A stretch of DNA of 7,345 bases from a virus. Position numbers and translations under genes: made by a program. Numbering within the stretch: the first letter of the stretch is position 1; each line of letters starts with the position of its first letter. The notes beneath the pieces are model-generated. The model did no database searches. It had not been told where the DNA came from and worked only from the letters and a program-made list of their open reading frames with translations. The stretch lies in the IMG/VR virus record IMGVR_UViG_3300003327_000002; one strand, 5' to 3'. Shown here piece by piece: positions 1-7,345 of the stretch.

Positions 1-59
1 CCGCCGACAACCAACGCAGCAGCGATGGTCAGGAGGACGACTGCAAGAAGCTGGCCCAT
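1..59 (-). CDS. Duplicate N-terminal fragment of the 64-aa membrane ORF (same sequence as 7092-7150); an artefact of the terminal redundancy
   Basis: The ATG (plus-strand 'cat' at 57-59) and following codons are identical to those of the ORF at 6956-7150. Confidence 0.6.
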   Translation of the reverse strand, partial: MGQLLAVVLLTIAAALVVG

Positions 60-191
60 GCCCTACCCCTACCCCCCGCACCCCGAAGACCCGCCCCGGC
101 CGGGGGGGAGAGCCGGGGGCGGGATGACCAAGGCCATTGGTCACAAGGCACTGTATAAAGGGCTTGGTCACCTCAGTCAAGGGGCTTGGTC
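60..191. promoter_or_regulatory. Divergent control region between the minus-strand morphogenesis/replication operon and the plus-strand repressor gene (second copy at 7151-7282)
   Basis: This 132-bp stretch is non-coding. The minus-strand promoter is TTGACT (plus 180-175), a 17-nt spacer, then TATACA (157-152). The plus-strand -10-like TATAAA lies at 154-159 with TG at 152-153, and it overlaps the minus -10. The SD AAGGGG at 179-184 sits 7 nt before the ATG at 192. Confidence 0.55.
90..123. other. GC-rich stem-loop: CCCGCCCCGG / CCGGGGGCGGG arms with one bulge, containing the perfect 12-nt palindrome CCCCGGCCGGGG at 94-105. Candidate ssDNA origin, packaging signal or leader structure.
   Basis: Arms 90-99 and 113-123 are complementary apart from one extra G. 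The C-tract array at 61-101 lies next to it, and these become G-tracts on the coding/packaged minus strand. Confidence 0.4.
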
Positions 192-192
192 A
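125..192. promoter_or_regulatory. Operator-like array: four copies of the half-site TTGGTCA
   Basis: TGACCAA (125-131) and TTGGTCA (137-143) form an inverted repeat with a 5-nt spacer. Direct copies of GGGCTTGGTCA lie at 160-170 and 182-192, 22 bp apart. The last copy overlaps the repressor ATG, and the middle copy lies in the spacer of the minus-strand promoter. Confidence 0.5.
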
Positions 193-671
193 TGGAAATC
201 GGAGAAATCATCGACCGCGCGAAAGCAGCAATCGGAGCCGAGAGCGACAGCGCGCTATCCCGCCACCTCGGACTCAGCCGAACCGCGGTAGGCAACTGGC
301 GGTCAGGCGTCAGCCTGCCGGACCCGGTTTCCTGCGAGCGCCTGGCAGGACTGACCGGAATCCCGCTGGCACGGGTGCTGGGAATCGTAGGAGAAGCCCG
401 CGCTCACTCGCGCGAGGAAAAGGCCGTATGGCGCAAGCTGGCGGCCTCCGCCACCCTCCTAGCGCTGGTGGTGCTGGGAAACGCGCAGGAAGGCGTCTAT
501 GCGGCCACACAGCCGTCAATCGACGCGGCCAAGATGTATATTATGCGAAATCGCGGGGGCCTCGATAAAGGACTGCGCTACCTCGGCCGAATCCTGCGGG
601 ACTGGCTCGGCTTCGCCCTAGGACGCGCCCGCAAGCCAGAAGGAAGCATCGAGGTCTTCACATGGATTTGA
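192..671 (+). CDS. XRE/Cro-cI-type helix-turn-helix repressor (putative phage immunity/lysogeny regulator), 159 aa
   Basis: The HTH signature SALSRHLGLSRTAVGNWRSG spans about nt 246-308. The gene is divergent from the structural operon, as filamentous-phage repressors are. I chose the ATG at 192 with SD AAGGGG over the TTG at 186. Codons are GC3-rich except at the embedded dif-like site. Confidence 0.85.
   Translation: MEIGEIIDRAKAAIGAESDSALSRHLGLSRTAVGNWRSGVSLPDPVSCERLAGLTGIPLARVLGIVGEARAHSREEKAVWRKLAASATLLALVVLGNAQEGVYAATQPSIDAAKMYIMRNRGGLDKGLRYLGRILRDWLGFALGRARKPEGSIEVFTWI
524..551. other. dif-like XerC/XerD recombination site (candidate attP) inside the repressor CDS: CGCGGCCAAGA-TGTATA-TTATGCGAAAT
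   Basis: On the minus strand it reads ATTTCGCATAA-TATACA-TCTTGGCCGCG. From memory, ATTTCGCATAA is the XerC arm of Xanthomonas dif, and E. coli dif is GGTGCGCATAA-TGTATA-TTATGTTAAAT. This is an AT-rich island in a GC-rich gene: the codons tat att atg cga aat break the GC3 bias. Confidence 0.55.
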
Positions 672-985
672 CCGACTACAACAACAGAACGCCATGTTGG
701 CCAATGGGCCAGCCATGCCCGAACAAGTGCGCTGCGCAAGTGCGCGATTTGATAACGCGGAACCATGTGCACTTGCACGGCCCGTGGGCCGGCTGGCGAC
801 TCGCCGGCCGCGACTTGGTCAGCCCGGACGGCATCAGATTCAGCCCCGAGCGACTCCGAGGGCTGGCATGGCGGCAAGAAGCAGAAACCCGCTTGGCCCA
901 CATCCGGGCCAAGCACAAGCAGCAAGAACCGCTCGTCACCGTGATCCGCGTCCGCAAGAACGAAATCGGCCCCCTAGCAGGCTAG
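662..985 (+). CDS. Small phage protein, probably DUF3653 family (XafT-like Xer recombination activation factor candidate), 107 aa
   Basis: The ATG at 662 overlaps the repressor stop (ATGGATTTGA), with SD GAGG at 651-654. GC3 bias is strong. The motif GPWAGWRLAGRDLVSPDGIRFSPERLRGL and the size match my recollection of DUF3653 proteins of IMEX-type phages. Confidence 0.7.
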   Translation: MDLTDYNNRTPCWPMGQPCPNKCAAQVRDLITRNHVHLHGPWAGWRLAGRDLVSPDGIRFSPERLRGLAWRQEAETRLAHIRAKHKQQEPLVTVIRVRKNEIGPLAG

Positions 986-1158: not shown

Positions 1159-1179
1159 GTAGGGGGCTTTGCCCCCTAC
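1159..1179. other. Perfect 9-bp hairpin GTAGGGGGC-TTT-GCCCCCTAC in the 236-bp intergenic region
   Basis: Read directly from the sequence. Neither strand has a flanking U/T tract, so it is not a canonical intrinsic terminator. It is a candidate ssDNA structural element (origin or packaging signal) or a weak terminator of the 192-985 transcript. Confidence 0.4.
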
Positions 1180-1221: not shown

Positions 1222-1611
1222 ATGGATCGAGAGCGACCGCCCTACCTGGGCGACCTACCGCGCGACCGACGCGGCAACTGGCCGATGTACCTGCTGGCCG
1301 TCAGCCTACTGGCCGCACTGATCGGCGCTTGGAAGGTCTACACGGGCACCGTGGTGGCATGGCATGAGCGCTTCCAGGCTCCGAAGCCCACCGCCACAGC
1401 GCCAGCACCGCCAAGCCCCGCCAAGCTGGAACGACGCCGCGCAGCACGGCAAGAGGCGCTTGTCGCAGAGGCTGCGCGCCAGATCATGCAGCAGGCCGAG
1501 AAACAGGACCGGTCAGGCTGGAAATGCATCGACGGCACGCCGTTCCGGCCTGTTCCAGGTGGCGGCTGGGAGAACGTGCCAGGCGAGAGATGCGCTACGT
1601 CGAGGCAATAG
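1222..1611 (+). CDS. Membrane-anchored protein of unknown function, 129 aa: Arg-rich N-terminus, one TM helix, Pro-rich linker, charged helix, and a C-terminal two-Cys domain
   Basis: SD AAGGGGGA lies 5 nt before the ATG at 1222. Codon usage is GC3-rich. The TM segment is YLLAVSLLAALIGAWKVY. The C-terminal sequence is GWKCIDGTPFRPVPGGGWENVPGERC. I recognise no family. Confidence 0.7.
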   Translation: MDRERPPYLGDLPRDRRGNWPMYLLAVSLLAALIGAWKVYTGTVVAWHERFQAPKPTATAPAPPSPAKLERRRAARQEALVAEAARQIMQQAEKQDRSGWKCIDGTPFRPVPGGGWENVPGERCATSRQ

Positions 1612-2230
1612 CAGACAACAAGACGAGATGAGCAACGTAATACCCGAGGAAAACCCATCGAACGCGCGGCAAGCGCACATCCAGACGCCCGAGCGCCCAC
1701 AGCACCGGCACCGATAACAACGCCCAGACGTTGCCGTTGTAGAGGCACAAAGCGCTGTATGCAACACCCAGTGCTAAGGCAGCGACGAAGTGACCCGTCC
1801 ACGTTCTGGCGCGGAACCAAAGACACGCAGAGAACATCAGCGCCGGGCCGGTCCACTGGTAATCAACGAACAGGCCAAGGACCGCCCACACTACGAGCGC
1901 AGCCCATGCACTCCGCGCAGTGCAAACGTACAGCCCGAGCGCCAACGAGAACAACACGTTCACCGGCAGCCAGTACCCGAACGCAAGAGCATGGAACGGC
2001 TGAACGACCGCCCCAGCCACCAACAGGCGGCGAATCGCCCGGCCAGACGTTCCAGGACGCGTGTCTACCGCAGCGTTGTAAGCCAGCACGACGGCAAATA
2101 CCGGAAACGCGACGCGCCCCAATTCCGACAGCCACTGAAACGAGCCAGCGAACAAGGCTTTGTTCACGTGGTCGCCGGTCATCAAAACAAGCGCAAGCCA
2201 CTTCAACAGCTCACGGCCACCAGAAGTCAT
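1595..2230 (-). CDS. traX: TraX-family integral-membrane acyltransferase (F-pilin N-acetylase family), 211 aa
   Basis: Three blocks align with my memory of F-plasmid TraX. LKWLALVLMTGDHVN matches IKTVALVLMVLDHSN. GRVAFPVFAVVLAYN matches GRGAFPLFALVWGLN. LPRVRWVFLGYYVAHLVLLSAIA matches LPRFWPGDFFPTFYACHLAVLGVLAL. The protein is polytopic and hydrophobic throughout. Its start overlaps the zot stop (ATGA at 2230-2227). Confidence 0.85.
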   Translation of the reverse strand: MTSGGRELLKWLALVLMTGDHVNKALFAGSFQWLSELGRVAFPVFAVVLAYNAAVDTRPGTSGRAIRRLLVAGAVVQPFHALAFGYWLPVNVLFSLALGLYVCTARSAWAALVVWAVLGLFVDYQWTGPALMFSACLWFRARTWTGHFVAALALGVAYSALCLYNGNVWALLSVPVLWALGRLDVRLPRVRWVFLGYYVAHLVLLSAIAST

Positions 2231-3357
2231 TGCACAAGCCCCGCACCATCAATCACAACTCCCGCGCTCGTAGACGCAGGCACGGCCTGTGACACCTGCG
2301 CAACCTGATGCACCTGCTCGCGCTCACGCTGACGCTCACGGTATGGGTTGTAGGGCGCACCGTAACGCGCAACCGTGCGACACTCGGGCTGGCTCAACTC
2401 GTACAGCGTGCCCTGTTCTGTGAAGCACGTACACGACGGCTCGCGGTAGCTGCCATCCGCCACGGTACCGCCCAAACTGGACATGCAATACAACTGCGGA
2501 TCGGCAGTAACGCGCCGATCATCGAACACCGGAGCAGTCCAGGGCATAGTGGCAAACCGCGGCAAGTGTGCAGTCGCATAATCCGAGAGACTGGCCCAAA
2601 CCCCGCGCCCGCCGCCGCCCTGCTCAACAGGAACGGCAGCATGCGGCGGCGCGGCTGACGCCGCGCTCGCCGCCTCTTCCGAAACACTGCCAGCTACAGC
2701 ATCCGGACGCAGGAAGCTAAACGCAATCCACCCAGATACCACGGCTCCGACAATCACCGCAGGAATTGCCAGAACCTTAAGCGGAAGCCGCGGCTTGATC
2801 GTGTGAACTTCCGCGGACTTGTAAGAGCCAAACACATGCGAAGGCAACAGCCGCGTGGTCCGCTGAGCCAGCTCACGCTTCGCGGTGGACTTGATTTCTT
2901 CGTTCAACTCGCCCCACGTGAACACGTCAACCATATGTGTGCCAAACCGGCGCACAACGTGATGATGCGTTCCGATAAGACCCCGCACAAACGGATACAG
3001 CTGATTAGGCTGCTGAGTCGTCCACACGAAGTCCAGGCCCCTGTGCCGATGCTCCGCCAGGTCGAGAACATGCTTAGGCGTAGCTTGCCTGGTCGCATCG
3101 TGAAGATGACCAAACCATTTCCAGGCCTCATCCACGAAGATCAGCGAACCGTCAGGGACAATGTACTGTCCTGTATGAGGATCACGGCGGTTCCAATCCC
3201 GCGCATCGTCCAACGGCGTAGCCAAACCCGGCTGCAACCCATCGATTCCAACCGCGAAAATCGGACGTTCAGCTTTCTTGGCCTCTTCAATGAGACGCTC
3301 GACCATGAGCGCCGTCTTACCGTTGCCCGGCTGACCAGTGAACAATTCGATTGGCAT
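2227..3357 (-). CDS. zot: Zot-family / pI-like phage assembly ATPase, 376 aa
   Basis: Walker A GQPGNGKT (nt 3313-3336) and Walker B LIFVDEAW are present, followed by one TM helix (LAIPAVIVGAVVSGWIAFSFL) and a C-terminal periplasmic domain. I chose the start at 3357 (MPIELF...) because it lies 1 nt after the pVI-like stop (TGAAATG) and has a GGGGG SD. I rejected the upstream ATG at 3402. Confidence 0.95.
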   Translation of the reverse strand: MPIELFTGQPGNGKTALMVERLIEEAKKAERPIFAVGIDGLQPGLATPLDDARDWNRRDPHTGQYIVPDGSLIFVDEAWKWFGHLHDATRQATPKHVLDLAEHRHRGLDFVWTTQQPNQLYPFVRGLIGTHHHVVRRFGTHMVDVFTWGELNEEIKSTAKRELAQRTTRLLPSHVFGSYKSAEVHTIKPRLPLKVLAIPAVIVGAVVSGWIAFSFLRPDAVAGSVSEEAASAASAAPPHAAVPVEQGGGGRGVWASLSDYATAHLPRFATMPWTAPVFDDRRVTADPQLYCMSSLGGTVADGSYREPSCTCFTEQGTLYELSQPECRTVARYGAPYNPYRERQREREQVHQVAQVSQAVPASTSAGVVIDGAGLVQ

Positions 3358-3358
3358 T

Positions 3359-3691
3359 TCAAGCCCCCGATGCCGCCTTCCGGAAGAACACCCGGCCAGC
3401 ATTCATTGCGTGTCTGGCCGCCACAGCGGAGATGATCATAGTTAATGCCTTGTCGAAATTGAGAAGGCCCATCCATTGAAGAGCAACAGCAGCATACTCA
3501 CCGCCACCCATGCCCGAAGTTGCCAAACTTTCGAGGTGCTCAATGAACGGCTCGACGCCAAACTTATAGCTCGCCAGTGAAACACCAAACCAGGACAAAA
3601 CAGCCGTGAGCATCTGGCCGATGCGATTCTTGAACAGCCAGAGGACAGCAGACGTGATGCCAGAAATAATCCAGCCGAGAATCGCAGGCAT
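3359..3691 (-). CDS. pVI-like minor coat protein, 110 aa
   Basis: It sits between the adsorption protein and zot. It is a small hydrophobic protein with membrane segments (ILGWIISGITSAVLWLF, MLTAVLSWFGVSLA). Its start overlaps the upstream stop (TAATG at 3693-3689). Confidence 0.75.
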   Translation of the reverse strand: MPAILGWIISGITSAVLWLFKNRIGQMLTAVLSWFGVSLASYKFGVEPFIEHLESLATSGMGGGEYAAVALQWMGLLNFDKALTMIISAVAARHAMNAGRVFFRKAASGA

Positions 3692-5061
3692 TATGCAGTC
3701 CCCCCGCTAACGATCCGCAACGACACCAGTCCGGCCAGGATCAACACGATAGAACCGGCAAGACTCACCCATTGACACAACGGCGCAAGATCGAAATTAA
3801 CCACCACGCCGTTTGGCAACGTCACACTCGGCGGCGTTGGACACGTCCGCGAATAGCCGTAACCGCTCGAATCAGGCTCAGGGATATCAACTTCATCATC
3901 GCCGGGGCCAGCATCAGTCAGCGTATCGCCGCCAACAACGTTGGGATCATGCGTACCCGGACCGCCCAAGAAGTCGATCACGTCCGAATTGTCACCATCG
4001 CCGCCGCCACCACCGCCCGCCGCCATCTTTTCCAGCGAACACGCTGCCTTCCACTGTTGCACCAGCATCGAATACTCGAGCGCGTCACACTTCTCACCAT
4101 CGCATACCGGCATAGCTCCACACGTACCGCCACTTATGCTGCGGTTCTTGCGAGTATTGCAATCAATGCGCCATTGAATCCGCGCTTGTCCGCACAAGAT
4201 CGGACTACCGCTGCACTGTGGCGGAGTGCTGCAATCATCGCCGCCGGAAAAAAACTCTTCGTCGGCGTCGTCTTCGTTGCCATCGCCGTCATCATCGCGC
4301 TTGCACGTGCCATCCGGGCCGCGCACCTGACCGGCGGGACACTCGTTATCAACACAGCTACCATCCGGACCGCGAACTTGACCGGCTGGACATTCGTTCT
4401 CGCGCTTGCGACACGTGCCATCCGGACCCAGAACTTTACCCGCAGGGCAAGGCTCCGGAGCGCACTGGCCCAAACTGTTACGCGACTGGCCAGCAGGACA
4501 AAGCGGCTCGTCAGGCTCACACACATTCAACACGGGATTCCAAGTGTGACCGGACGCAACACACGATTCCGGAAAATTACGGCCATCACACGCGCTGGAC
4601 TGATCGAAACTAGCAGTGCTGGTGCCATCTGCATTCTGATAAAAATGCACGGTGCAACCACCGTTGCAGCCATACGAACCAGAACGAGGCAAAAACTCAG
4701 TCACAAAATCATCGCGCGCCTGGCAACTGCTCCTAAAAAAATAAGTGCCGTAATACGTCTGAGAGCCAGCATAAGCCGTAGAACAATCCCAAGCTCGATG
4801 AATGATGGTATAGCGCGGCTGATAGCGGTCAGGCAGCGTCTTAAAACACCCGTCAAACGACCGAACATAACCAGTGATCTCTTTACCATCGCCGGGCGAA
4901 TGCTCAGCCATGCAGCGTGAGTACGCCTCGCCCTCGTCCTCATACATGCCACCGCTAGGCGGGCTGAATGAAGGAGCCTGGCACGATTGAGCAAATGCGC
5001 TCCCCGCCGCGACGAACAGCGAAAAAAAACACAAAACCCGCGCGAAGAGCACACGAACCAT
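3691..5061 (-). CDS. pIII-like adsorption/minor coat protein, 456 aa
   Basis: It has a signal peptide MVRVLFARVLCFFSLFVAAGSAFA/QS. The start at 5061 has a GGGGG SD 7 nt upstream, and I rejected 5118. Downstream come a Cys-rich N-terminal domain, four Cys-bounded repeats, an acidic stretch, a Gly run (GGGGGGDGD) and a C-terminal membrane anchor WVSLAGSIVLILAGLVSL. It lies immediately after the major coat gene. Confidence 0.8.
   Translation of the reverse strand: MVRVLFARVLCFFSLFVAAGSAFAQSCQAPSFSPPSGGMYEDEGEAYSRCMAEHSPGDGKEITGYVRSFDGCFKTLPDRYQPRYTIIHRAWDCSTAYAGSQTYYGTYFFRSSCQARDDFVTEFLPRSGSYGCNGGCTVHFYQNADGTSTASFDQSSACDGRNFPESCVASGHTWNPVLNVCEPDEPLCPAGQSRNSLGQCAPEPCPAGKVLGPDGTCRKRENECPAGQVRGPDGSCVDNECPAGQVRGPDGTCKRDDDGDGNEDDADEEFFSGGDDCSTPPQCSGSPILCGQARIQWRIDCNTRKNRSISGGTCGAMPVCDGEKCDALEYSMLVQQWKAACSLEKMAAGGGGGGDGDNSDVIDFLGGPGTHDPNVVGGDTLTDAGPGDDEVDIPEPDSSGYGYSRTCPTPPSVTLPNGVVVNFDLAPLCQWVSLAGSIVLILAGLVSLRIVSGGTA
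4303..4500 (-). repeat. Imperfect tandem coding repeats encoding four Cys-bounded 13-residue loops
   Basis: The peptides are CPAGQSRNSLGQC, CPAGKVLGPDGTC, CPAGQVRGPDGSC and CPAGQVRGPDGTC, at ORF-track residues 207-272 of the 475-aa ORF. The matching nucleotide repeats (ccatccgg[gr]cc...accggc) are visible on the plus strand. Confidence 0.8.
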
Positions 5062-5143
5062 CAATCGCCCCCGAAAACGATATAAAGCGCAACGAGCCAA
5101 GCGCAAAGCCAGATCCAACCTTCCATGAAATCATCCCCAGAGG

Positions 5144-5174
5144 AAAAAAGGCCGGAAGGGAACGCCTTCCGGCC
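5144..5174 (-). terminator. Rho-independent terminator downstream of the major coat gene
   Basis: A perfect 10-bp GC-rich stem (5150-5159 pairs with 5165-5174) has a 5-nt loop. On the minus strand it is followed by TTTTTT (plus A-run at 5144-5149). It begins 15 nt after the coat stop codon. Confidence 0.85.
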
Positions 5175-5188
5175 CACAACAGCACCCG

Positions 5189-5410
5189 TCACATCGCGCG
5201 ACGCACCCACTTGTAGACCTTGATACCCACGAGGACCAGAAGCACCGCGGAACCGATGGCCGCAATCGGAGCCGCGGCACCCTCAATGGCGCTCACGACG
5301 CCGGACACATCGACACCACCGCCACCGCTGGCGAACGCGGCCGGAGCGACCAGAACCAGCGACGCGGCCGGAGCCATGGCGTACAGCTTGCCCTTGAACT
5401 TCTTCAGCAT
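5189..5410 (-). CDS. Major coat protein (pVIII-like, class II Xf/Pf1 type), 73-aa precursor
   Basis: The signal peptide is MLKKFKGKLYAMAPAASLVLVAPAAFA, followed by the mature sequence SGGGGVDVSGVVSAIEGAAAPIAAIGSAVLLVLVGIKVYKWVRRAM. That sequence has an acidic N-terminus, a hydrophobic core and a basic C-terminus, and it is nearly identical to my recollection of the Xf coat protein. A strong SD GAGGAGA lies upstream. Confidence 0.95.
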   Translation of the reverse strand: MLKKFKGKLYAMAPAASLVLVAPAAFASGGGGVDVSGVVSAIEGAAAPIAAIGSAVLLVLVGIKVYKWVRRAM

Positions 5411-5422
5411 TGCTTTTTCTCC

Positions 5423-5626
5423 TCACGATTGATCAACGAACTTCCGAATCCGGCGAAAAACCCACGCGCTGCCCCAGAGCAACGCGCACGCCAGGCCAAT
5501 GGCCTGCGCTTCCTCGATGCTCAGCGCCGGAAGACTGGGCATCTGCGGAACCCAAATTTCCTGTGCGCACGTGCCCGTCGACGCATCAAAATCTCGATCA
5601 AGACAGCCTCGGACAACGTACGCCAT
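5423..5626 (-). CDS. Small coat-like membrane protein (pVII/pIX-position ORF), 67 aa
   Basis: It lies between the ssDNA-binding gene and the major coat gene. A C-terminal TM segment plus basic tail (AIGLACALLWGSAWVFRRIRKF) resembles a virion-cap or coat-type protein. It starts 3 nt after the upstream stop. Confidence 0.6.
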   Translation of the reverse strand: MAYVVRGCLDRDFDASTGTCAQEIWVPQMPSLPALSIEEAQAIGLACALLWGSAWVFRRIRKFVDQS

Positions 5627-5629
5627 GAC

Positions 5630-5917
5630 TCAGCCCTTCACCGCGTTGGCGGTCGAAGTCGGAATCGGAATCAAGTAGATGCGGCGGCCGACCCGCAGCG
5701 AGTCGAAATCGCCGACTTCCAACGAGGACACGTCGAGCAGATACTTGCCCGGCGGATACGGCGGCTGATCGTCGCCAAGATTGATAGTGAACGGCTTCGG
5801 GAAGTCCTCGCCAGTCTCAATGGCCGCCCGCTGTTCCTTGAAAACAACCTGCGTACCGTCCTTGCGCTTGATGACGCGCGGCGTGGCAGTGCCAGACTTG
5901 ATGATGATGCAGTTCAT
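5630..5917 (-). CDS. gV-like ssDNA-binding protein, 95 aa
   Basis: The assignment rests on position directly after Rep with an ATGA overlap (5917-5914), a GGAG SD 8 nt upstream, its size, and a beta-rich sequence ([29 protein letters not shown]...). I rejected the upstream starts at 5974 and 5938. Confidence 0.7.
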
Positions 5918-6747
5918 GCGATTAGCTCCAATTTCCATGCAAAAACCCGGCCCTGAATGAACGAAACCCGCCACGGCGAGGGCCAGAATTCGCCGGTGAG
6001 TTTGTCAACGTAGCCGCCGAGGGCTTTGCGAATATCGGCCAACGGACCGAGTGCGGCGCGCGCATCTTCCGGGGCTTTCCACCACCGCAGTTCGCGCCTG
6101 GACTCTTCATTGAGGCCGCCGACGCCATGAGTGCGAAAACCCTTCGGGAACGCCTCAGCCATCGCGCCGCAGAACTTGGAGGCGTACTTAGCGAGATACC
6201 CGACCGCATTACGGGCGCGCTCGATCTTAGTCATGCCGTGAGGCCACCAGCCGCGCGCGTCCGGCTTGCCCATCCAGTAGCCGCGCGGAATCCAGATCAG
6301 GAGGTGGTAGTGAGGCCGCAGGCGCTTTGTGAGTTCGCAGACCCACAAATAACGGAGGCGCGCACGCCCCAGCCCCTTTCGTCGGTTAAAGCGATCGAAG
6401 TGGCCCCGGACTCGCTTAACCAATTCGCTAACGTCACGAGGGCTTGCGTCACTTCCCTCTGCGTAGGTCGCAGTGAGCATGTACCACGCGCCACGCACTG
6501 AACCCTTCCGCGCTTCTTCGTCATGGAGCCTTGCTCCGGTGATGATGGACTTCCGCAGGCGCATGGCCCTGATGCGGTTCTTGTTGAGTTCAACCGACAC
6601 GCGGTGAAGATGGCGCGTGTCACTTGTTGAAGAATGGACAAGCCCAAGGCCGCCTGCGGCGGCCTTCGAAAAGCGGGCGGCGCAAAGCGACTCCGCAACC
6701 TCAGCGGTGCGATGCGCAGCAGCGGCAAGGAGGGAGGCACGATTCAT
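5914..6747 (-). CDS. HUH-superfamily rolling-circle replication initiation protein (gII-like), 277 aa
   Basis: Motif I-like is WYMLTATY. The HUH motif is PHYHLLIW (nt 6292-6315). The catalytic Tyr motif is [11 protein letters not shown] (nt 6172-6204). I chose the start at 6747 because of the ATGA overlap with the upstream ORF and the GAGGTG SD. Confidence 0.9.
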
Positions 6748-6956
6748 GCGCACACCTCGGAAAGCGCAGCGCGGCACGCCGCCTGTTCGGCCAGTTCATC
6801 CATAGCCGCCTCGCGGATGCCCTTCCAGATCTGCCGCTGCCGAGGAGTAAGACGAAGCGGGAATAGATCAGCACGCGCCGACGCGGCGGCCAGCATGCCG
6901 TCCGCGAGTTCGAGCGCCATGCGTGCGCCGCGTTCGGTGTCCGTGATGCGGCTCAT
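6744..6956 (-). CDS. Small hypothetical protein upstream of Rep, 70 aa
   Basis: The ATG at 6956 has SD GAGGAAGG and a TGATG overlap with the upstream ORF. Its stop overlaps the Rep start. It is GC3-rich. I recognise no family. Confidence 0.6.
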
Positions 6957-7150
6957 CAAACCTTCCTCAACTCGCGGCATCGGGCAGCGCGCACCTCGCG
7001 CTCAGCGTTCCAGACCAGCGCAGCGGCGCGGTAGCTCGCATCCAGACGATGAAAGCGGCGAAGACGGACGAAGCGGACGACCCCGGCGATACCGCCGACA
7101 ACCAACGCAGCAGCGATGGTCAGGAGGACGACTGCAAGAAGCTGGCCCAT
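6956..7150 (-). CDS. Small membrane protein, first gene of the minus-strand operon, 64 aa
   Basis: An N-terminal TM helix (LLAVVLLTIAAALVVGGIAGVV) is followed by a basic stretch (RFVRLRRFHR). Codons are GC3-rich. It is coupled to the next ORF. I recognise no family. Confidence 0.55.
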   Translation of the reverse strand: MGQLLAVVLLTIAAALVVGGIAGVVRFVRLRRFHRLDASYRAAALVWNAEREVRAARCRELRKV

Positions 7151-7282
7151 GCCCTACCCCTACCCCCCGCACCCCGAAGACCCGCCCCGGCCGGGGGGGA
7201 GAGCCGGGGGCGGGATGACCAAGGCCATTGGTCACAAGGCACTGTATAAAGGGCTTGGTCACCTCAGTCAAGGGGCTTGGTC
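7151..7282. promoter_or_regulatory. Second copy of the divergent control region; this copy is physically upstream of the operon start at 7150
   Basis: It is identical to 60-191. The operator half-sites lie at 7216-7222, 7228-7234, 7254-7261 and 7276-7283. The GC hairpin lies at 7181-7214. Confidence 0.55.
7243..7271 (-). promoter_or_regulatory. Sigma-70-type promoter for the replication/morphogenesis operon
   Basis: Reading the minus strand gives TTGACT (7271-7266), a 17-nt spacer, then TATACA (7248-7243). This predicts a leader of about 85 nt containing the GC hairpin and G-tracts before the ATG at 7150. Confidence 0.5.
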
Positions 7283-7345
7283 ATGGAAATCGGAGAAATC
7301 ATCGACCGCGCGAAAGCAGCAATCGGAGCCGAGAGCGACAGCGCG
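7283..7345 (+). CDS. Duplicate 5' fragment of the HTH repressor gene (same as 192-254), truncated by the window end
   Basis: The sequence is identical to that of the first copy. Confidence 0.6.
   Translation, partial: MEIGEIIDRAKAAIGAESDSA

Follow-up and report, generated by a model that had tools for sequence, protein, structure and literature searches.

A DUF3653 gene overlapping the repressor gene beside the dif-like attP of a Lysobacterales filamentous phage: a candidate Xer accessory factor

In beta- and gamma-proteobacteria, plant and human pathogens included, most dif-integrating phages have a DUF3653 protein encoded next to their attachment site, and two laboratories have found different jobs for these proteins: Xer activation in the case of XafT and XafV, and packaging-signal binding in the case of PSB15. 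Which of these jobs belongs to the DUF3653 gene located in the window analyzed here, a 7,345-nt stretch of DNA that represents a circular filamentous phage (inovirus) of 7,091 bp from Lysobacterales, the Xanthomonas order (Table 1)? Studied members of the family either switch on XerCD or bind a packaging hairpin, and in this phage the choice between the two is beyond sequence alone.

Table 1. Coordinates of the features of the two-gene unit, its attachment site and the candidate packaging hairpin in the window.
Feature	Coordinates	Strand	Description
Putative regulatory region of the repressor operon	124..193	+	Three TTGGTCA-type operator-like repeats and a TATAAA box
HTH (XRE/CI-type) regulator gene	192..671	+	First gene of the two-gene unit; weak DUF3693 region
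dif-like attP	524..551	-	ATTTCGCATAA XerC arm, 541-551; TATACA centre, 535-540; TCTTGGCCGCG XerD-position arm, 524-534
GAGG ribosome-binding site (Shine-Dalgarno) of the DUF3653 gene	651..654	+	Within the repressor ORF; 7 nt 5′ of the ATG
DUF3653 gene	662..985	+	107 aa; positional orthologue of phiLf-UK PSB15 and VGJphi XafV
N-terminal extension	695..760	+	Residues 12-33, CWPMGQPCPNKCAAQVRDLITR; conserved in the clade, absent from PSB15, alignable to XafV 49-72
DUF3653 core	767..880	+	Residues 36-73; Pfam match; predicted three-stranded beta unit
Candidate packaging-signal hairpin	6596..6621	-	Viral strand, in the Rep gene: GACACGCG-CCATCTTCAC-CGCGTGTC

The initial annotation described a 107-aa ORF coupled to the repressor gene, and this overlap is borne out: the ATG (662-664) lies ahead of the repressor TGA (669-671), and the two genes share 10 nt (ATGGATTTGA). 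Neither a sigma-70-like promoter nor a + strand terminator was found between them. The product begins with MDLTDYNNRTPCWPMGQPCPNKC, and its residues 40-68 are GPWAGWRLAGRDLVSPDGIRFSPERLRGL. Its suspected DUF3653 identity was established by the Pfam HMM search that had been suggested: residues 36-73 match the curated family HMM PF12375 with 35.2 bits (E 1.4e-8), which exceeds the gathering score of 22.4 bits. Homologues of the product number 99 in a set of 5.8 billion proteins, two-thirds of them (66/99) with a precomputed PF12375 annotation, and 334 representative clusters match it at E <= 1e-3. W42, G44, W45, R46, G49, R50, P55, R59 and G67, among others, are invariant or near-invariant in the family. 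Furthermore, the identical 107-aa protein is encoded by 12 metagenome contigs, among which the ORF differs at 3 nucleotide sites only (L046-L048), all of them synonymous third-codon positions. The ORF is confirmed as a genuine conserved gene and not a chance ORF.

The overlapping upstream ORF (186/192..671) matches Pfam Phage_CI_repr (E 6.6e-5) and the PHROG 638 transcriptional regulator (E 2.6e-22), while its DUF3693 match (E 1.7e-3) is below the cut-off. Its product is 30% identical to ORF10 of phiLf-UK and 28% to ORF154 of VGJphi, both of which carry DUF3693 and contain the attP of their own phage; in the window, the last ~45 codons of the regulator span the attP. The operator-like repeats upstream comprise a palindrome, TGACCAAGGCCATTGGTCA (125-143), and two further repeats at 157-170 and 179-192, with the TATAAA box at 154-159. 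A like arrangement of operator-type repeats is found 5′ of the homologous HTH gene in a related prophage locus, L032, and the region probably has a regulatory role for the repressor operon.

On the + strand the dif-like site reads CGCGGCCAAGA-TGTATA-TTATGCGAAAT and encodes K-M-Y-I-M-R-N within the repressor ORF. The DUF3653 gene had been placed about 110 bp past this site, and its ATG is indeed 111 bp from the XerC arm (site at 524..551), immediately beside the attP like the genes of XafT and XafV. A good XerC arm and a degenerate XerD arm had also been claimed, and the comparison agrees: the XerC arm is perfect, with exactly the sequence that many Lysobacterales genomes have in the XerC arm of their dif, and the XerD-position arm matches TTATGTTAAAT at 3 of 11 positions, namely bases 1, 4 and 5 (T1, T4, G5). 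In XafT-driven recombination, a non-canonical XerD arm keeps the first or fifth innermost base (PMC9226527); the present site, with its canonical XerC arm and both of these bases, has this TLC-type feature. The centre is mostly TGTACA in near-identical phages, with a one-base variant in the window and in three further contigs; TGTACA is also the dif centre of Luteimonas sp. TWI596. In TLC-type sites, full homology of the centre to the host dif permits two-strand exchange. The opposite (XerD-side) polarity, as in L032 and VGJphi, was considered because the + strand centre is TGTATA. It was rejected because the gene adjoins an exact XerC arm, with C at position 6, because L011, in which a non-palindromic centre settles the polarity, has a similar degenerate arm, and because the TGTACA of most relatives is a palindrome. 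In phiLf, an extra XerD-like arm, TTATGTCAGGA, abuts the XerC arm and is unique to that phage. No integrated copy of the exact phage was found: all 12 contigs encoding the identical protein are episomal circles, and scans for exact patterns in metagenome and viral contigs yielded circles and CRISPR arrays only.

Relatives of the phage are found as prophages. In about 35 Lysobacterales chromosomal loci, the homologous gene lies roughly 20-140 bp from an XerC arm, which belongs either to a full dif or to an attP-like junction in a tandem array; this is as predicted by integration through the dif-like site. The HTH gene of related Lysobacterales prophages lies at the end of the prophage far from the DUF3653 gene, and both prophage junctions are visible in L032. 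Midonet et al. (2019; PMC6744903) had earlier reported DUF3653 in every dif-integrating phage of Xanthomonadales. The adjacency to dif seen in many loci was inherited from a common phage ancestor; it is not independent evidence of function. An argument for an Xer role from DUF3653 subclasses tracking attP polarity was dropped, since PSB15-like and WAGWRM-type proteins both adjoin either arm and the tracking is not clean. Solitary DUF3653 genes that have host genes or defence islands as neighbours (L002, L053) appear to be decayed remnants and favour neither function.

The protein itself consists of an N-terminal extension, the DUF3653 core, and a long helix followed by a hydrophobic linker. 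In the core, which carries the motifs LHG, WAGWRL and SPD, the AF2 model places strands at residues 35-37, 46-48 and 51-53 (pLDDT 93-97); a helix at 62-86 and the stretch VTVIRV follow, and the product stops at residue 107, 9 residues past this hydrophobic linker. The extension includes a helix at residues 22-33 in the same model and is conserved at C12 (all 78 sequences having a residue there), C23 (74/83) and P20 (75/83). Both the BLASTP and the hhalign alignments to XafV take in its residues 12-33, and it is interpreted as what is probably left of the C-terminal half of an HTH domain. Structural searches added little: a profile search of PDB sequences gave chance matches only (best E 0.087), Foldseek with the AF2 model (pLDDT 84.7) found nothing in the PDB at E < 1, and its sole find in BFVD was a member of the same DUF3653 family. 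Weak Foldseek matches to a methyl-CpG-binding-domain fold (probability about 0.1) were not taken as evidence.

Among the members with a demonstrated Xer role, XafV is ORF136 of Vibrio phage VGJphi (NC_004736 6102..6512), located beside the attP and overlapping the HTH/DUF3693 ORF154 that contains it. XafV raises integration through attP-VGJ 10,000-fold and is reported to be active only on XerC-initiated reactions (bioRxiv 10.64898/2026.06.12.731946). The window protein is homologous to this proven activator (BLASTP 30% identity over 53 aa, E 1e-6; hhalign probability 87%, E 4e-6), and the match covers DUF3653 and also a pre-domain stretch absent from PSB15. There are differences as well. XafV is longer (136 aa) and has a complete HTH-like domain at its N-terminus, whereas the window protein lacks an intact HTH, and the DUF3653 match of XafV (20.3 bits) is below the Pfam cut-off that the window protein passes. 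The VGJphi attP has two fairly good arms around a 7-nt centre, and xafV lies next to its XerD arm, whereas the window gene lies next to the XerC arm of a site in which the XerD arm is degenerate.

In this last respect the window resembles TLCphi, a satellite phage of V. cholerae. XafT (VC1465), a DUF3653 protein whose gene lies on the XerC side of the attP, binds XerD; it is both required and sufficient for the integration of TLCphi, and its activity on XerD is independent of DNA binding (PMC6744903). XerD binding, XerD-first catalysis and the integration requirement have been shown for XafT only. In the XerD arm of TLCphi, 8 of the 11 positions deviate, and the window has the same number. By its description, XafT is larger than the window protein (about 190 aa) and, unlike it, possesses an XRE-type HTH and a dimerisation function; it was not identifiable among the 150 representative matches listed. 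Furthermore, non-filamentous double jelly-roll (DJR) phages carry the same repressor/attP/XafT module (PMC12715192), which is therefore not tied to filament assembly. In the Vibrio system of that study, the repressor and Xaf-like genes flank the dif-like attP and become the terminal genes of the prophage, as in the Lysobacterales relatives; going by the description, the host order is another one, and the window differs in having the attP inside the repressor ORF and overlapping ORFs.

Judged from these comparisons, the ORF is the DUF3653 (Xaf-family) part of the conserved "regulator - attP - Xaf" lysogeny module of dif-integrating phages and, tentatively, is most likely an Xer accessory factor. 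This reading is favoured because the DUF3653 score is above the gathering score and the protein is homologous to XafV, and because the whole two-gene unit, an HTH/DUF3693 gene containing the attP and an overlapping DUF3653 gene, is homologous in the window, phiLf-UK and VGJphi. It is favoured also because the gene, like xafT, is next to the XerC arm, as are its homologues in the Lysobacterales loci mentioned above, and because the XerD-position arm deviates as much as that of TLCphi yet keeps bases 1 and 5. The TLC-type integration module proposed in the initial annotation stands as regards DUF3653 membership, attP anatomy and gene overlap, but the intact HTH of XafT and XafV is absent.

The module would work as follows. 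In the circular replicative form, the DUF3653 gene would be transcribed from the repressor promoter, with its translation coupled to the repressor ORF that crosses the attP. The protein may help host XerC/XerD to synapse and recombine the attP with the chromosomal dif, independently of FtsK, even with an XerD arm that is almost unrecognisable; we infer both its contact with XerD/XerC and the order in which the recombinases act. Recombination would sever the operon at the attP, so that the promoter and the HTH part go to one prophage end and the DUF3653 gene to the other, beside a regenerated functional dif. Because the operon is cut in this way, the factor should be shut off after integration, and this would stabilise the lysogen. 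XafT protein is detected from the replicative but not from the integrated form, and the operon topology of the window would predict likewise.

Some observations stand against this Xaf-type reading. No HTH family was matched by the ORF product in the Pfam search, and the N-terminal dimerising HTH that is fused to DUF3653 in XafT and XafV is missing: only residues 12-33 align with the end of the XafV domain, and the HTH is encoded on the separate, overlapping upstream ORF, which certain relatives, P0206 for one, have joined to DUF3653. There is also no informative structural match and no integrated copy of the exact phage. The genetics of PSB15 count against it too. PSB15 is ORF112/ORF9 of Xanthomonas phage phiLf-UK (MH206184 4983..5309; 108 aa against 107 aa here), and like the window gene it directly follows and overlaps an HTH/DUF3693 gene (ORF10) containing the attP. 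It is reported to bind the packaging-signal hairpin and to be required for assembly but dispensable for integration: in a start-codon knock-out, attL/attR formation was "unchanged" by qualitative PCR while phage yield went down (preprint, bioRxiv 10.1101/2024.03.19.585677). Of the suppressors of a packaging-signal mutant, 54/100 mapped to PSB15.

It is possible, if short of probable, that the window protein is an assembly factor of the PSB15 type, whose DUF3653 beta-hairpin binds the candidate hairpin and delivers it to the assembly site at the inner membrane; the attP adjacency would then be a legacy of genome organisation, with no role in Xer recombination. For PSB15 itself, the genetics and EMSA are strong. 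The two genes are positional orthologues in related phages (Rep 67% identical, gene order and HTH-gene overlap alike), and the proteins match by BLASTP at 35% identity over 65 aa (E 8e-8) and by hhalign with a probability of 95%. This match passes beyond DUF3653 into helix 1 and the hydrophobic linker (PLVTVIRVR vs P-AGVIYLR); the architecture of DUF3653, helix 1 and linker is shared. The window protein is about equally distant from PSB15 and XafV. The LTG/WAGFXF/TPE motifs of PSB15 have recognisable counterparts here in LHG/WAGWRL/SPD.

Several residues and parts of PSB15 nevertheless differ or are absent in the window protein. Phe15, the cross-linked DNA contact whose F15A mutation abolishes binding, corresponds to Leu47 here, and Leu or Met occupies this position in 80/83 family members; the specificity residues Thr7 and Thr22 are replaced by His and Ser. 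DUF3653 stands at the very start of PSB15, whereas in the window protein a conserved, Cys-containing N-terminal extension of 35 residues precedes it. At the other end, PSB15 continues for ~40 further residues with a basic helix 2 and a 27-residue C-terminal tail, which mediate cardiolipin/membrane binding and which the window protein lacks. The absence of the basic tail and the replacement of Phe15 by Leu are further grounds for favouring the Xaf-type reading.

The candidate hairpin has an 8-bp GC-rich stem and a 10-nt loop, CCATCTTCAC, that contains T-x-x-x-C, and in the Rep alignment its position corresponds to that of the mapped packaging signal of phiLf-UK (nt 330-358 of MH206184). Relatives have in-frame indels in the loop but retain the stem. 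Known packaging signals have a GC stem of 7-8 bp with GGX(A/-)CCG(C/T)G and a loop of 6-10 nt with conserved T and C (bioRxiv 10.1101/2023.12.30.573655); in the candidate stem, ACCGCG is present but the required GG is absent. In addition, a PSB15-type function leaves unexplained why DUF3653 genes are kept beside the attP in Vibrio phages and in non-filamentous DJR phages, where two members are proven Xer activators.

Combination of the two jobs in one protein is conceivable but unlikely: the DUF3653 protein may be a fate switch that licenses XerCD at the crippled attP, captures the packaging hairpin and is silenced by integration. As long as the genome remains a free circle, this protein and the repressor would be produced jointly, and integration would cut the operon exactly between the repressor and DUF3653 genes. 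On this reading, the clade-specific, Cys-containing N-terminal remnant could be the part contacting Xer, or thioredoxin. The remaining alternative, a transcription-regulatory partner of the repressor (Cro/antirepressor-like or co-repressor) acting on DNA or on the HTH protein, is very improbable: the gene is co-expressed with and overlaps the repressor gene, DUF3693 and DUF3653 are one fused polypeptide in P0206, the PHROG 25084 profile (250 positions) is matched at 136-222, VGJphi ORF136 was first annotated as a "putative transcription regulator" and XafT/P15 is termed "a transcriptional regulator" in PMC12715192, but of a DNA-binding HTH only a remnant of ~25 residues is left, transcription regulation has been shown for no family member, and XafT acts on XerD without need of DNA binding.

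The finding extends a known module to uncultured phages of Lysobacterales, and is otherwise unsurprising to a specialist. What makes this 7.1-kb phage useful is its compactness as a natural test case: its DUF3653 protein has an XafV-like front and a PSB15-like back without the membrane tail of PSB15, and the same genome unites a TLC-type attP with a recognisable packaging-type hairpin. If the fate switch were true, the seemingly contradictory results on XafT/XafV and on PSB15 would be those of one family with two DNA-transaction partners.

The first 254 bases of the window reappear at its end (1..254 = 7092..7345) in a circularly permuted assembly, and therefore the circular unit genome is 7,091 bp. 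The standard inovirus gene set is found on its minus strand (see table). No close DNA-level phage was found in GenBank; the top hit there is 74% identical over 8% of the window. At the protein level the relatives belong to the order Lysobacterales (Xanthomonas, Stenotrophomonas, Lysobacter, Luteimonas, Pseudoxanthomonas, Thermomonas). A gene of the TraX (F-pilin acetylase) family is placed between Zot and the lysogeny module and is kept in many related prophages (loci L007, L008, L023, L032, L035, L036, L052). The intergenic space after the DUF3653 gene and before the 129-aa ORF holds a perfect GC-rich hairpin, GTAGGGGGC-TTT-GCCCCCTAC, with no T-run, which may for example be a terminator or an origin element.

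Features of the phage genome (window coordinates)
Feature	Position	Strand	Remarks
Repeats with TATAAA box	124..193		TTGGTCA-type
HTH regulator	192..671	+	
dif-like site (attP)	524..551		
DUF3653 ORF	662..985	+	
Hairpin	1159..1179		
129-aa ORF	1222..1611	+	
TraX-like gene	1595..2230	-	Pfam PF05857, E 3.7e-37
Zot/pI	2227..3402	-	
pVI-like protein	3359..3691	-	
pIII-like protein	3691..5118	-	
Major coat protein	5189..5410	-	
Single-strand DNA-binding protein	5630..5974	-	
Rep	5914..6777	-	PF23343, PHROG 2969
Hairpin in Rep	6621..6596	-	
Protospacers	538-569, 2120-2151, 4356-4387, 5728-5760, 6409-6440, 7044-7075		spacers of contigs L059/L060

The ORF that the initial annotation proposed as XafT-like indeed belongs to the DUF3653 family, with a Pfam score of 35.2 bits against a curated cut-off of 22.4. 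The described overlap with the repressor gene is confirmed as well: the ORF begins with the ATG at 662, ahead of the repressor stop at 669-671, with GAGG 7 nt upstream, and a sequence scan found neither a promoter-like site nor a plus-strand terminator between the two genes. The motif quoted there is found at residues 40-68, and the nearby dif-like site is located 111 bp before the ATG, within the repressor ORF. The 99 homologues share a sharply conserved core, GPWAGWRLAGRDLVSPDG.R..P.RLRGL, and the few nucleotide differences in the ORF among near-identical phages are all synonymous. An AlphaFold model (pLDDT 84.7) places helices at 22-33 and 62-86, with three short strands in between (35-53); a PDB profile search and fold searches with this model against PDB and BFVD gave no informative structural neighbor.

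The two-gene unit of HTH and DUF3653 genes is also present in Xanthomonas phage phiLf-UK and Vibrio phage VGJphi. In phiLf-UK, the HTH/DUF3693 gene ORF10 (5299..5844) holds the annotated Xer core (5393..5407) and overlaps ORF112 (4983..5309), which encodes PSB15; in VGJphi, the functional attP (6544..6560) lies inside the HTH/DUF3693 gene ORF154 (6436..6900), overlapped by ORF136 (6102..6512), which encodes XafV. Identity of the window's HTH protein is 30% with ORF10 and 28% with ORF154. The DUF3653 protein shares 35% identity with PSB15 (E 8e-8, residues 38-98) and 30% with XafV (E 1e-6, residues 13-65), with profile comparison probabilities of 95% and 87%, respectively. Its pre-domain stretch (CWPMGQPCPNKCAAQVRDL), which resembles the end of an HTH domain, is common to XafV (QWDAGEKIPPICKRLMRW) but not to PSB15, whereas the long helix and hydrophobic linker after the domain are common to PSB15, making the protein a mosaic of both. 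In the 234-aa family protein P0206 and in PHROG 25084, regulator and DUF3653 protein form one continuous ORF, and the att-encoded peptide lies mid-protein in such fused relatives, so that integration would split the protein in two.

On the minus strand the attachment site reads ATTTCGCATAA-TATACA-TCTTGGCCGCG. As had been described, the XerC arm is good, being identical to the dif XerC arm of many Lysobacterales genomes, and the XerD-position arm (524-534) is degenerate, as bases 1, 4 and 5 alone agree with the XerD consensus; the XerD arm of TLCphi attP, with 8/11 mismatches, is equally degenerate. In TLCphi, XafT (VC1465) has an HTH and a DUF3653 domain, and its gene lies on the XerC-arm side of attP. 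The protein is both necessary and sufficient for integration; it binds XerD, drives XerD-first recombination and tolerates almost any XerD arm if base 1 or base 5 is kept (PMC6744903, PMC9226527). The window arm keeps both. By current knowledge this attP should be nearly inert without help. XafV expression raised integration of an attP-VGJ plasmid 10,000-fold, and XafV is active only on XerC-initiated reactions (bioRxiv 10.64898/2026.06.12.731946). The TLC-like arm pattern favours XerD-first over XerC-first order here, a choice that sequence does not decide.

Among the 41 chromosomal loci found with the DUF3653 protein family, about 35 have the gene preceded, at roughly 20-140 bp, by a XerC arm. 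Its partner is either a true XerD arm, which marks a functional dif at the prophage end, or a degenerate one, which marks an internal tandem-array junction. The DUF3653 gene is followed by inovirus genes, with the HTH gene at the opposite end of the prophage; because of this placement, integration parts the DUF3653 gene from the promoter of the repressor. The gene would then be shut off after integration, in agreement with an immunoblot in which XafT was seen from the replicative and not the integrated form (PMC6744903, PMC9226527). Since attP lies in the regulator ORF, where it codes for residues MYIMRN (114-119), the last ~45 regulator residues would become host-encoded. The regulator also carries a hydrophobic stretch, LAASATLLALVVLG (residues ~84-100), after its DNA-binding domain. 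Directly upstream of its ATG, a TATAAA box is surrounded by three TTGGTCA-type repeats, the palindrome TGACCAAGGCCATTGGTCA among them, which are probably operators; the HTH gene of L032, a Pseudoxanthomonas koreensis prophage, has an equal layout.

A minority of elements are mirror-polar: the DUF3653 gene adjoins the XerD-type arm, and the XerC position holds the degenerate arm. Both junctions of L032 (9881-9908, 17484-17511) were read, and its reconstructed attP is TCCCCCGGGAT-TGCACA-TTATGTCCCGC; its HTH protein is 80% identical to that of the window. VGJphi itself is of this polarity, and so are several genes of the PSB15-like type located on the opposite side of dif. Minus-strand DUF3653 genes are found beside dif in L023, L027, L029, L033 and L036, a mirror-type site occurs in L050 (6536-6560), and many dif sites have prophages of both polarities on either side, facing each other. 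Because the DUF3653 subclass does not track this polarity cleanly, no functional conclusion is taken from the comparison.

Base 539 of the center (535-540) is polymorphic among near-identical phages: the plus-strand center is TGTATA in the window, L044, L055 and L056, and the palindromic TGTACA, also the dif center of a Luteimonas genome, in eleven contigs (L045-L049, L054, L057, L058, L061-L063). In XerC-to-XerD orientation the window center, TATACA, matched none of the dif centers of the fetched Lysobacterales loci, and no integrated copy was found among identical-protein contigs or by exact-pattern scans of metagenome and viral contigs. A direct link to a host comes from CRISPR spacers, on array contigs without flanks that name it. 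The metagenome contigs L059 (ERZ777003, 3165 bp) and L060 (Ga0065720_1007014, 3132 bp) carry type I-F-like arrays of 51-52 repeats, which read GCTAGCTGCCGCATAGGCAGCTCAGAAA on the presumed transcribed strand. Among their spacers, six different ones match this phage with 1-5 mismatches, and a CC PAM is found at 5/6 protospacers. A spacer that occurs two times in L059 spans half of the attP center, the XerC arm (541-551) and 18 nt beyond; its single mismatch, at the PAM-distal end, is base 539.

What, then, does the DUF3653 protein do? We tentatively favor a Xer factor of the Xaf type, because the family has two proven activators, the homology extends to the pre-domain of XafV, the attP is expected to need help, and the module persists in phages that form no filaments. 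The only evidence against it is end-point PCR in a preprint, where a PSB15 start-codon mutant gave few virions and still formed attL/attR products (bioRxiv 10.1101/2024.03.19.585677). A packaging role of the PSB15 type is a real, somewhat weaker possibility. By position and host order, PSB15 is the closest orthologue that has been studied, and its function is backed by unbiased genetics, 54/100 suppressors of a packaging-signal mutant mapping to it; it binds the signal hairpin via LTG/WAGFXF/TPE, with Phe15 cross-linked to DNA, and cardiolipin via its basic C-terminus (bioRxiv 10.1101/2024.03.19.585677). The phage also conserves a perfect viral-strand hairpin with an 8-bp stem, GACACGCG-CCATCTTCAC-CGCGTGTC, inside Rep at the position homologous to the mapped phiLf-UK signal. 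It fits the published description of a 7-8 bp GC stem and a 6-10 nt loop with a conserved T and C (bioRxiv 10.1101/2023.12.30.573655), without the GG of the required stem consensus. At the homologous sites (L036, L045, L054, L055, L058) the stem is kept and the loop varies by whole codons; the 5′ arm in L058 carries a 9-nt duplication. Against a full PSB15 mechanism, the window protein has Leu for the contact residue Phe15, changed residues for the specificity threonines and no membrane-binding C-terminus. That the protein both activates Xer and packages, a case contained in these two readings and not additional to them, has a small but real chance, and a purely regulatory role is very improbable.

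The presence of DUF3653 in all dif-integrated Xanthomonadales phages was already noted by Midonet et al. (PMC6744903), and the repressor/attP/XafT module is known in Vibrio inoviruses and non-filamentous double jelly-roll (DJR) phages (PMC12715192). Neither the mosaic relation to XafV and PSB15 nor the conserved Cys-containing N-terminal remnant was found in the literature consulted on the module, and the occasional fusion of both genes, as in P0206, and the mirror-polarity sites in Lysobacterales were likewise not met with in those papers. The phage is a new, uncultured member of the described regulator/attP/DUF3653 module.
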